Below are positions 12,567 to 23,166 of a DNA stretch of 64,000 nt, piece after piece (position 1 is the stretch's first letter; each line of letters opens with the position of its first letter). The notes below the pieces were generated by a model that made no database searches, was not told where the DNA came from, and saw only the letters and a program-made list of their open reading frames with translations. A program made the translations under genes and the position numbers. Origin of the DNA: Verrucomicrobiota bacterium (GTDB lineage Bacteria > Verrucomicrobiota > Verrucomicrobiia > Opitutales > Coraliomargaritaceae); NCBI GenBank assembly GCA_039815375.1, contig JBCBZJ010000018.1:1-64000 (forward strand), given 5' to 3'.

Positions 12567-12582
12567 CTTCTTCAATTTTTAC
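12545..12582 (+). repeat. left copy of an imperfect 38-bp direct repeat (tRNA-Leu 3' end plus 16 bp of flank); candidate att site
   Basis: GGTTCAAGTCCCGCCCCGGGCACTTCTTCAATTTTTAC matches 23129-23166 at 30 of 38 positions. Confidence 0.45.
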
Positions 12583-12681
12583 ACCATTCAGTGAAGTTAA
12601 AAGAGTGATGGTAAGCTTTTAGCTATGTGGTCGGCTCGGCTGGCAGAGAAGAACCGAAGGTGAAGTATAAAAGTCCTTTAG

Positions 12682-13104
12682 CTATTCGCTTCCGAGAGAA
12701 CCCAGCAACCTAAGCAGATCTGCTTTTGATAGTTTCTCAATGTAGCCCATTTCTCGTCGTTTAAAGTAAAACAAGGCACCCTCCTTTTGGGGCTCTATGA
12801 AGAAACACTCCCATCTTTCGTTTCCTGCTTCATTAAGAAATTCGGTCAATTTCTCTGGATCTTTTCCTTTGATTTCTAGAACGAGATACCTCCAGTCGCC
12901 GATTTTTTCAAAGTCTTTTTGAGCGGCATCCTTCAACTGTGAGGGTATTTCTCTATCTTTTACTTTCTCATCATACAGCCGCTTCGCCTTGTCCCAGTAG
13001 GATTCCTCTACTTCAGCTGCTTTGATGACATTCACATCGGCATGTGAGAATGATTGTATGCCTGCTAGGAACAGAGTGGCTGCTAGAGCTATATTTGGGT
13101 TCAT
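12682..13104 (-). CDS. secreted hypothetical protein
   Basis: N-terminal signal peptide (MNPNIALAATLFLAGIQSFSHA). Last gene of a three-gene minus-strand unit inside the putative island. Confidence 0.5.
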   Translation of the reverse strand: MNPNIALAATLFLAGIQSFSHADVNVIKAAEVEESYWDKAKRLYDEKVKDREIPSQLKDAAQKDFEKIGDWRYLVLEIKGKDPEKLTEFLNEAGNERWECFFIEPQKEGALFYFKRREMGYIEKLSKADLLRLLGSLGSE

Positions 13105-13149
13105 GGTTGTTCGTGTCTGTGTGGATTCTCACGGCGGCGGCGCGGCTCG

Positions 13150-13551
13150 CTACTTCAATGCGCTTGTAACGGCTTCTCTAAAGGCATATTCGCGCGGGTC
13201 CTCACCATCGGATCTGAAGAGCTCTGTGACCGAGTTAAGTGCCTTTCGTTTGCCTGCTTCCGATGTGATGCGTGTACTCAGTGACTGAAGAAACTCATTC
13301 TGAAGATTCTCGTTTGCGATGGATTGCCGCACCTTGTCCGTAGCAGTATTGATATAAAGATCGACCGGCGTGCTCGAATTCCAATCCAGAAGCTCGATTT
13401 TGTTTTTCAGGACATTGTCCTCTGAGAAGGAAAGATGGTTGTCCATATAGATACCAAAGAGAAGAAGGTCTACAATCGCTTCTCGTTCTGTCTGATTTAG
13501 GCCATCAGCCGAATTTTTCTCTGGTTGGAATAATTTTTCTAATATTTTCAT
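13150..13551 (-). CDS. hypothetical protein
   Basis: 133-aa ORF, co-directional and spaced 45-47 nt from its neighbours. Confidence 0.45.
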   Translation of the reverse strand: MKILEKLFQPEKNSADGLNQTEREAIVDLLLFGIYMDNHLSFSEDNVLKNKIELLDWNSSTPVDLYINTATDKVRQSIANENLQNEFLQSLSTRITSEAGKRKALNSVTELFRSDGEDPREYAFREAVTSALK

Positions 13552-13598
13552 AGTAAAATCTTTATTTTTGTTTTCCAGGTATCGACTTTGACGAAGTC

Positions 13599-22148: not shown

Positions 22149-22168
22149 GCCAACCGAGTGGGTTGGCC
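22148..22168. terminator. perfect 8-bp stem hairpin GGCCAACC-gagtg-GGTTGGCC between convergent genes; likely terminator for pspA, possibly bidirectional
   Basis: Read directly. A T-rich tract lies on the minus strand immediately after the stem (complement of gaaaagaaatag). Confidence 0.4.
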
Positions 22169-22195
22169 TACTGTTAGACTAGTAGAGCCTAAAGC

Positions 22196-22945
22196 TCAGC
22201 TTGTCTTATCTTTTTCCTGCTCCTTCTCAGTGATGATGAGTGGAATCTCGTCACCTTCAGATTCAATACCAGTCGTAAATCCAAGCTCTCCGGAGAGGCT
22301 TTTGAGTGCTTCATGTGCGAGTGCTTTCTCTTCGGACTCACTTGGGATATCAAAAGTAGGCATCGCATCCTTCGCAACGCGCTCTCGGCCAGCAGCCTTT
22401 GCACGCGCATCTTCAACCATGTTCTCAAGTCGACTGAGTGTTTCACTAGCGCCACCCATATCGGCTGTCATGCTACTGGCCATTTCCGAGAGGTCTGCTG
22501 TCGCTTCCTTAACCTTAAGCTCGTTGATTTTGCTTTGAAGCGTTTCAATCTTCTTTTGTGCCTCTTTAACGCTCGCTTCCCGGTTTCGAGTCATCTCTTG
22601 GTAAGTCCGCTCTGAGGCTTCCAGTTGATCGCGGTTTGTCGCCAGCTCTGTGCGAACTTCGTTGAGTTTGAGTGCTTGCCTGCCCGCAAGCTCTTGATTG
22701 CCGGCTGTTACGTTTGACTTAATCTTTGTCAATAGTTGCGTCTCCTGTTCTTCCTGACCTTTGACCTGAGCAATCAACTTCTCAACCATTGCTGCATGGG
22801 CAGCAAGACCCTGATTATAACGTTGAATTTGCTTTCGAAGATTCTCCTTCTCTGCCCCTAGGAGCGCATCGGGGTTTGTTTTCTCTAGTTCTGTGATAGC
22901 AGAACCAAAGATGCTTTTGAAAAAATGTAAGATTCTTTTTATCAT
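22196..22945 (-). CDS. pspA: PspA/IM30 (Vipp1) family protein, bacterial ESCRT-III-like
   Basis: N-terminal amphipathic helix and the ELEKTNPDALL...ENLRKQIQRY...A block are similar to PspA/Vipp1 (KAEDPEKVL...). The protein is predicted coiled coil throughout. 249 aa. Confidence 0.7.
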   Translation of the reverse strand: MIKRILHFFKSIFGSAITELEKTNPDALLGAEKENLRKQIQRYNQGLAAHAAMVEKLIAQVKGQEEQETQLLTKIKSNVTAGNQELAGRQALKLNEVRTELATNRDQLEASERTYQEMTRNREASVKEAQKKIETLQSKINELKVKEATADLSEMASSMTADMGGASETLSRLENMVEDARAKAAGRERVAKDAMPTFDIPSESEEKALAHEALKSLSGELGFTTGIESEGDEIPLIITEKEQEKDKTS

Positions 22946-23128
22946 TTCACCAGCATACTAAGCCATTTTCTGCTTACCATTATAAATTTCTTCAATTTTT
23001 CTCCTCCATAGAGCAAATAGACATTACGAATCTGCCATACTAGTTTCAAAGGCTGAATCCCACTTTCGCAAGTGGCAGATAAACAAAGCTAAGTGAAATT
23101 AGGTGCAAATTTAGGAAAACTGAAAGCC

Positions 23129-23166
23129 GGTTCAAGTCCTGCCCAGAGCACTACTGCAATTGTATC
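23129..23166 (+). repeat. right copy of the imperfect 38-bp direct repeat of the tRNA-Leu 3' end; candidate attR remnant
   Basis: GGTTCAAGTCCTGCCCAGAGCACTACTGCAATTGTATC. The T-arm-like part cannot base-pair (CCGG/CCTG), so it is not a second tRNA. Confidence 0.45.

Follow-up and report, generated by a model that had tools for sequence, protein, structure and literature searches.

The 64,000-nucleotide (nt) stretch of a marine Verrucomicrobiota genome studied here (contig JBCBZJ010000018.1, hereafter the window) carries a five-gene block. It consists of a divergent CII-like regulator, a YqiJ-flotillin-giant trio and a convergent gene of the PspA/IM30 type, the giant being a 1,702-amino-acid (aa) protein that ends in an AAA+ ATPase module. 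The trio, already recognised by comparative genomics, is a bacterial module of ancient origin that is widespread and strongly conserved. We consider it probable that the block represents this known trio with its own regulator and PspA, relocated to a tRNA-Leu gene, and that the flotillin scaffold is remodelled by the ATPase. A stretch of about 10.6 kb is interposed between the tRNA-Leu gene and a degenerate copy of its 3' end. The block and two small orphan genes were most likely moved into the 3' end of tRNA-Leu(TAA) by an integrase-type event, the integrase having since gone. The open reading frames (ORFs) were as given in a preliminary description of the window, and all genes of the island were present.

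The giant has more than 4,695 homologues among 8,000 candidates scored, at about 50% identity. They span Verrucomicrobiota, Planctomycetota, Desulfobacterales-type taxa and Bacteroidota, plus Sulfidibacter corallicola, and the N-terminal 720 residues match 939 clusters at 50% identity. For the analysis of synteny, a metagenome scan added 80 loci, giving a total of 83 non-redundant loci with giant identities of about 40-78%. A YqiK-type flotillin gene was directly upstream of the giant gene in 61 of the 63 evaluable loci of this set, and a YqiJ-like gene was upstream of the flotillin gene in 56 of 57. The median intergenic gaps of the trio across loci were 21.5 and 110 nt. With otherwise unrelated flanks, the trio was found in Symmachiella dynata (Planctomycetes), Sulfidibacter corallicola and Rubritalea genomes (four genomes). 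This near-invariant synteny bears out the preliminary description, which had taken NfeD/YqiJ, flotillin and giant for a functional unit and had asked whether giant homologues recur next to SPFH/NfeD genes.

Neighbour clustering combined with Pfam placed a PspA_IM30 gene (7.6e-44) immediately upstream of the YqiJ gene in 17 of 53 loci. In most cases CesT_Tir_1 (7e-53) stood ahead of this gene and a divergent XRE-type helix-turn-helix (HTH) regulator opposite it; PLDc_2 occurred in 6 loci. On plasmid pQBR103 (L176, 85428-104416) the trio is fused downstream of a PspA/IM30-rhomboid-DUF2491-DUF350-DUF1190-glutathionylspermidine-synthase set. That set is like the PspA/polyamine operon of the E. coli yjfIJKLMC type, none of whose genes is present in the window. 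Proteus mirabilis and Vibrio campbellii are among the other carriers, and pQBR103 itself belongs to P. fluorescens. On a Hymenobacter plasmid (L177) a regulator named LexA-family by NCBI is divergent from a Tir chaperone-PspA-DUF1449-flotillin-giant series.

A flotillin/YqiJ/AAA+ neighbourhood, including CesT/Tir-PspA and PLD variants, was described by Ravi et al. (2024, mSystems, PMC11237479). In it, a large AAA+ protein with N-terminal beta-propeller repeats and a coiled coil is encoded directly after flotillin, as it is in the window, and both variants were reproduced in our metagenome sample. Because this neighbourhood is already published, the locus is not new in kind, and its earlier presentation as a candidate undescribed system is not supported. 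The window differs from the published neighbourhood in that it has no CesT/Tir gene and its PspA belongs to another, very divergent subfamily, encoded convergently downstream and not upstream in the operon. Its regulator is CII/CP76-like, not XRE-type. The paper gives no structure-based AAA+ clade, whereas the module described here is predicted to be MoxR/NorQ/CbbQ-like. Given a convergent PspA of another subfamily and the lack of CesT/Tir, the window holds an 'abbreviated' form of the trio together with a lineage-specific PspA. The CII-like regulator, the divergent PspA in convergent orientation and the tRNA placement are lineage-specific features.

The first gene of the operon (14184-14861, + strand) encodes a 225-aa membrane protein of the YqiJ/YuaF type (NfeD-like) with an acidic D-rich repeat. 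Its Pfam match to YqiJ_N was sub-threshold (E = 2.7e-4). Profiles built from the window proteins with their orthologues were compared by hhalign with E. coli yqiJ-yqiK, and that of the 225-aa family matched E. coli YqiJ over nearly its full length (89.7%, E = 1.8e-6). By its likeness to YuaF, the protein would have a C-terminal OB-like domain. The second gene (14874-16946, + strand) encodes a 690-aa YqiK-type flotillin with a transmembrane (TM) segment, an SPFH domain, a long coiled coil and a C-terminal domain. It had no Pfam match below E = 0.01. Residues 21-422 of its family profile were aligned to residues 19-411 of E. coli YqiK (99.9%, E = 8.4e-35), and its homologues are named 'flotillin family protein' or YqiK by NCBI and JGI. 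In a search of Protein Data Bank (PDB) sequences, the flotillin profile retrieved only a weak QmcA coiled-coil stretch and the YqiJ profile nothing.

The YqiJ-like and flotillin genes are separated by 12 nt, and the flotillin and giant genes by 93 nt, with no + strand terminator predicted between the latter two by the terminator scan. Both gaps had been reported correctly, as had the uninterrupted junction and the NfeD/YqiJ-like gene immediately upstream of flotillin, which the profile matches to YqiJ and YqiK now support. E. coli yqiJK and B. subtilis yuaF-floT have homologues of these first two operon genes, in the same order and tightly spaced, but lack the giant AAA+ gene found in the window. 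The window flotillin is also longer (690 vs 553 aa) and is not matched by the Pfam models Band_7 and Flotillin. Operons of NfeD-like and SPFH2 genes are ancient, and knowledge of the pair goes back to Hinderhofer et al. 2009 (PMC2636767). At residues ~44-66 of the YqiJ-like protein (window 14320-14380) there are alternating acidic repeats, DFDFDADVDVDVDADVDVD, which are also a tandem repeat at the DNA level (family D7). Orthologues differ in the length of this repeat, and the copy from Sulfidibacter corallicola has a much expanded one.

The giant gene (17040-22148, + strand) has its start at 17040 supported by alignments. The protein, named 'DNA repair ATPase' by NCBI, matched Pfam DUF3686 (2.2e-176), DUF7902 (1.5e-25) and AAA (4e-9); the statement that this AAA+ protein belongs to no nameable family is not supported. 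DUF3686 (17127-18452, + strand) is predicted to have about 28 beta-strands in a beta-propeller-like arrangement. DUF7902 (18813-19067, + strand) lies inside a long helical-bundle/coiled-coil region. The AAA+ module (20802-21539, + strand) is in the C-terminal third and contains Walker A (SPPGYGKTT, 20853-20879, + strand) and Walker B (YLDDIQH, 21051-21071, + strand, giant residues 1338-1344).

Residues 1-720 and 1151-1702 of the giant were modelled. The AF2 model of residues 1-720 (pLDDT 85) showed an N-terminal helix, about 28 strands (residues 52-406) and helical bundles. Foldseek matched this model to beta-propeller proteins at E = 1e-6 to 1e-4 with low TM-scores; in view of low scores despite propeller matches, the modelled DUF3686 domain is described as propeller-like but divergent. 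The predicted fold of the AAA+ module most resembled that of NorQ and CbbQ, which are chaperone-like ATPases of the MoxR type. Walker A, Walker B and the motif GNPYTE...IPDMLANRAD are invariant in giant homologues. No nucleic-acid-binding, nuclease or protease domain was detected in the giant. Neither Pfam nor the two models indicated a membrane-spanning segment in it, no dedicated TM prediction having been run. NCBIfam gave only weak matches for the island proteins, far under the curated cut-offs. The giant also had weak RuvB_N-type P-loop matches.

The last gene of the block (22196-22945, − strand) is convergent to the operon and encodes a 249-aa protein. A hairpin at 22144-22172, with a 12-bp stem that has 6 GC pairs, lies between the convergent giant and PspA-like genes and is likely a bidirectional terminator. 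The 249-aa protein matched PF04012 with E = 6.8e-8 and 32.8 bits, compared with a gathering score of 33.9, and its orthologue in a Puniceicoccaceae metagenome-assembled genome (MAG; L002) scored 36.2 bits. The protein has 240 homologues; PF04012 is present in nearly all of the 120 listed, several of which bear the name PspA/IM30. A profile built from 30 sequences of the family aligned end-to-end with a profile of bona fide PspA, including E. coli PspA (88.5%, E = 2.7e-6). We assign the protein, with moderate confidence and from its sequence, as a putative divergent member of PspA/IM30.

In the window, in L174 (67% protein identity) and in two JGI contigs (L179/L180) the PspA-like gene is directly convergent after the giant gene. 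It is three genes away in L002 and apparently more in the arrangement of L171/L178. The proposed link to PspA holds in this clade, and in the 17 distant loci mentioned above it involves a separate PspA subfamily. PspA/Vipp1 proteins are bacterial ESCRT-III homologues, and a PspA/IM30-family gene adjoining an AAA+ gene is like the ESCRT-III/Vps4 pair; the AAA+ module of the giant is not of the Vps4-like classical clade with an MIT domain. As a separate observation, the PspA-like gene of L002 is the last gene of a secretin/type II secretion system (T2SS)-like cluster (18629-25136; Secretin_N/Secretin, T2SSK), a placement reminiscent of the classical association of the Psp response with secretin stress. 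In L171/L178 the PspA-like gene also ends up beside a secretin/T2SS-like cluster.

Divergent from the operon is the gene of a 155-aa HTH regulator (13599-14066, − strand). It matched Phage_CP76 in Pfam (E = 9e-8) and PHROG_101, 'CII-like transcriptional activator' (E = 6.6e-12), the latter being the only match of the island proteins to PHROGs. A CII-like gene is at the same position in L001, L002, L171, L170, L174 and L179. Because it is conserved with the block across the clade members examined, we regard it as a conserved divergent regulator and not as prophage scrap. The idea of a prophage remnant was rejected since the gene is kept with the block at non-phage loci; the preliminary description had it as a phage remnant heading three small genes, and it is instead a divergent part of the block in every clade member examined. 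The region between the regulator and the operon (14067-14183) is a putative divergent promoter/operator, as suggested by conserved blocks GCAAGGTGATT and TATAAAATCTCTCGC..TATTGTAATAT in an alignment of six orthologous intergenic regions.

The best matches of the giant were in Coraliomargarita algicola and Puniceicoccaceae MAGs (77-79% identity). In C. algicola (L001) and Thalassobacterium maritimum (L171), the CP76 gene on the − strand and YqiJ-flotillin-giant on the + strand are located directly after rpsL-rpsG-fusA-rpsJ. The placement next to rpsJ was also found in a Puniceicoccaceae MAG (L002-L005) and in the JGI contigs L179/L180. These blocks share ~73% DNA identity with window 13612-21886 and have no tRNA nearby. 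The complete five-gene block with a convergent PspA is present in the window, L174 and L179/L180, while L002, L171 and L178 have insertions between giant and PspA. Since the set of regulator, operon and PspA recurs in sister genera beside rpsJ and in L174, the CII-like regulator, YqiJ-flotillin-giant and the convergent PspA form a clade-wide five-gene unit.

In the closest relative (L170), whose flotillin is 94% identical, a homologue of one of the small orphan genes (orf140), the CP76 gene and the operon follow right after the apparent 3' end of a different tRNA. Positions 1-100 of L170 contain the apparent 3' half of this other tRNA (..GAGAGTTCGAACCTCTTCGCTCGCTCCA) and then a hairpin terminator. 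The truncated fragment matched positions 36-71 of the Rfam tRNA model with E = 0.72 only. Should it be a tRNA, the block would have a second placement next to a tRNA, which argues that the block relocates as a unit.

At the left boundary of the insertion is an intact tRNA-Leu(TAA) gene (12484-12567, + strand), the sole tRNA called in the window by ARAGORN. Its 3' end and 10 nt of flank form an attachment-site (att)-like direct repeat (12542-12577, + strand; family D6 of the repeat finder). The right copy (23126-23161, + strand) is a degenerate tRNA-Leu 3' end with flank, an attR-like remnant, and 30 of its 36 positions are identical to the left copy in the same orientation. A degenerate pattern of the tRNA 3' end matched only these two sites in the 64 kb, and 0 matches are expected from shuffles. 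An intact tRNA and a copy of its 3' end 10.6 kb downstream had been noted in the preliminary description, and both stand. The end of the tRNA moves from 12566 to 12567, and the repeat given as 30 of 38 at 23129-23166 is replaced by the extent and identity reported here.

Related loci were collected with the flanking RecR protein as query, each species being represented by one genome, which yielded 80 loci. Most of them retain the CBS-FHA-YbaB-RecR block, and in 0 of the 80 was the module found within 10 kb upstream. A Puniceicoccaceae MAG (L028) has tRNA-Leu(taa) at 8282-8367, 89% identical to the window tRNA, directly upstream of the CBS gene of this flank, and its CBS-proximal flank aligns with window ~23330-23375. 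For L006, the closest relative by RecR, similarity with window sequence starts at 23252, just past the tRNA fragment. The fragment at 23126-23161 occupies the expected place of the ancestral tRNA 3' end, and therefore ~10.6 kb is interposed. Insertion is supported because L028 has tRNA-Leu(TAA) directly upstream of the same flank. Insertion at tRNA-Leu, as originally proposed, is thereby upheld, and an unoccupied site in a related genome, one relative of the 80, has been found. Between the tRNA fragment and the CBS gene there is a strong intrinsic terminator (23271-23300, + strand; a 13-bp stem followed by a T-run), which is probably a relic, the orphaned terminator of the ancestral tRNA-Leu.

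A second direct-repeat pair is formed by the exact 13-mer TTCTTCAATTTTT, with its left copy at 12568-12580 (+ strand), immediately 3' of the tRNA, and its right copy at 22988-23000 (+ strand), an alternative right boundary. There are just two copies in the window, with 0.19 expected even when one mismatch is allowed. The right copy lies 43 nt upstream of the start codon of the PspA-like gene and 128 nt before the tRNA fragment. The pair may be a second or nested recombination boundary, a hint that the history was more complex. Apart from the contig of the window, this strain is represented by one contig (L173), which shares 100% identity with the window and starts at 22998, within the right copy. 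As a candidate island-free contig of the same strain it was uninformative, since it simply starts at that position.

Between the tRNA and the regulator are the two small orphan genes, orf140 (12682-13104, − strand; 140 aa), with an N-terminus that by eye is signal-peptide-like, and orf133 (13150-13551, − strand; 133 aa). Neither had a significant Pfam or PHROG match. The orf140 homologue in L170 is at the equivalent position (74% DNA identity to L170 169-480), and a counterpart of orf133 was not found in L001, L002, L170 or L171.

We infer that the block serves to remodel a flotillin scaffold, at the expense of ATP, during envelope stress. The flotillin, anchored or partnered by the YqiJ-like protein, would assemble into an oligomeric scaffold of the SPFH type at the cytoplasmic side of the inner membrane. 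The giant would oligomerise via its MoxR-like AAA+ ring, dock on the scaffold or on clients through its propeller and helical arms, and spend ATP to assemble, disassemble or remodel the scaffold. PspA/IM30 polymers would work on the same damaged or remodelled membrane, and the dedicated transcription factor would activate the operon in response to a specific stress, probably one that concerns the envelope. SPFH proteins assemble into cage-like oligomers, and the one made by HflK/C houses the AAA+ partner FtsH, so that the coupling of an SPFH scaffold to an AAA+ protein has a precedent. FtsH, a protease of the classical AAA+ clade, contacts HflK/C in the periplasm, whereas the giant has no protease domain and is placed by its predicted fold in another AAA+ clade.

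Several results weigh against a relocated block with an ATPase acting on flotillin. With regard to the insertion, L028 is the only empty-site relative among the 80, and its left flank is not conserved, the MsrA-DUF493 genes of the window not being found beside its tRNA. No integrase or recombinase was found among the island ORFs or the annotated flanking genes of the window (not every window ORF was scanned). The GC content does not deviate, with values of 0.45-0.51 for the region itself and about 0.45-0.53 for its flanks. With regard to PspA, 36 of the 53 loci have no adjacent PspA gene. The PspA-like profile had no hhalign match to E. coli PspA alone, and among PDB sequences only spurious coiled-coil and G-gamma matches were obtained. 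BLASTP found no similarity between the PspA-like protein of the window and the operon-linked PspA of other lineages; because of this we take the two to differ, and distinct subfamilies mean that two PspA/IM30 subfamilies have been linked to the trio independently.

With regard to the ATPase, MoxR family members (NorQ, CbbQ, RavA, GvpN) are proteins of about 250-500 aa and are usually partnered by VWA proteins (NorD, CbbO, ViaA), whereas the module here is the C-terminal third of 1,702 aa. No VWA gene was seen among the annotated neighbours of the loci examined or among the recurrent neighbour clusters. Walker B of the giant reads DD, not DE, and the Asp in the place of the catalytic Glu is invariant across 37 homologues, a substitution that suggests slow or regulated hydrolysis. 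In the literature we found no paper mentioning DUF3686 and no experimental work on 'DNA repair ATPase' with flotillin, flotillin with MoxR, or flotillin with NfeD and AAA+. The mechanism is drawn from gene linkage and folds.

The lack of an integrase among the annotated genes, a GC content equal to that of the flanks and a left flank that is not shared with L028 would also fit a history with no integration. The fragment at 23126-23161 would then be an unrelated decayed tRNA or a relic of an older element, and the block would have arrived by ordinary rearrangement. The repeat is just 83% identical, and the exact 13-mer pair gives a different right boundary, which implies at least two events or a more complex history. 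We consider this explanation rather unlikely, however, since the fragment matches the 3' end of the same tRNA plus 10 nt of downstream flank in direct orientation. It also sits at the tRNA place of the L028 empty site, with synteny with relatives resuming just after it, and L170 has the block and the orf140 homologue directly after the apparent 3' end of another tRNA.

The block could also be a mobile anti-phage or abortive-infection system, in which phage-type regulators sense infection and flotillin, AAA+ protein and PspA alter or sacrifice the membrane. Its location at a tRNA insertion site, and at different chromosomal sites in related genera, agrees with this. So do the phage-like regulators (CII/CP76 here, a divergent XRE-type HTH in 16 other loci and a LexA-family name on the Hymenobacter plasmid), plasmid-borne copies such as that of pQBR103, and a PLD-family hydrolase in some operons. 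However, PADLOC 2.0, run on all seven proteins, returned two things only: for the giant, a marginal match to IetA (E = 0.0039) that did not extend beyond the Walker A region, and for the PspA-like protein, coiled-coil noise. No homologue of the giant was present in 50,697 GenBank phage records or IMG/VR, and neighbour clustering yielded no recurrent restriction, toxin or other recognisable defence-type genes. An identity of ~50% over 1,700 residues across phyla, with a fixed gene order, is unlike fast-evolving defence genes, and the sister genera hold the block at a stable locus beside ribosomal-protein genes. We regard a defence system as unlikely, and the defence function put forward in the preliminary description is so far unsupported.

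It is quite improbable, too, that the five-gene block is a self-contained, relocatable device for membrane-based immunity or damage response, whose phage-type regulator fires on infection or DNA damage, after which the giant remodels the flotillin cage and PspA seals or sacrifices the membrane. If true, this would establish a new class of SPFH-based defence and supply the first defined ATP-driven partner for bacterial flotillins.

That the giant is a real DNA-repair ATPase, its membrane linkage being incidental or reflecting membrane-tethered DNA transactions, is highly improbable: the database names ('DNA repair ATPase' in NCBI, 'ATPase involved in DNA repair' in Pfam), the weak RuvB_N-type P-loop matches, the regulator of the Hymenobacter plasmid locus that NCBI names LexA-family, and UvrD or SSB genes adjoining the block in single loci speak for it, but the RuvB matches are confined to the Walker A region, nucleic-acid-binding or nuclease domains were not detected, the fold is nearest to the MoxR chaperone-like NorQ and CbbQ, the linkage to YqiJ and flotillin is near-obligate, and literature support for the name was not found.

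Elsewhere in the window, a GT4 glycosyltransferase gene (4180-6642) also matches PF20706, 'GT4 in conflict systems' (1.5e-13), and adjoins two small Kdo/RIO/APH-like kinase genes. It probably belongs to the biosynthesis of the lipopolysaccharide core rather than to a conflict system.

The role of bacterial flotillins is a long-standing question, and a conserved ATPase of ~1,700 residues encoded after YqiJ and flotillin is the obvious missing enzymatic partner. In spite of its near-constant linkage to flotillin, this protein is still annotated as a 'DNA repair ATPase'. What the present locus adds is that the ATPase is predicted to be MoxR/NorQ/CbbQ-like, of the complex-remodelling chaperone type and not Vps4-like, and that the block, which has its own regulator, can move as one unit. 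The trio has twice, independently, recruited a PspA/IM30 subfamily, the two being unrelated, and its functional link to membrane repair is therefore stronger.

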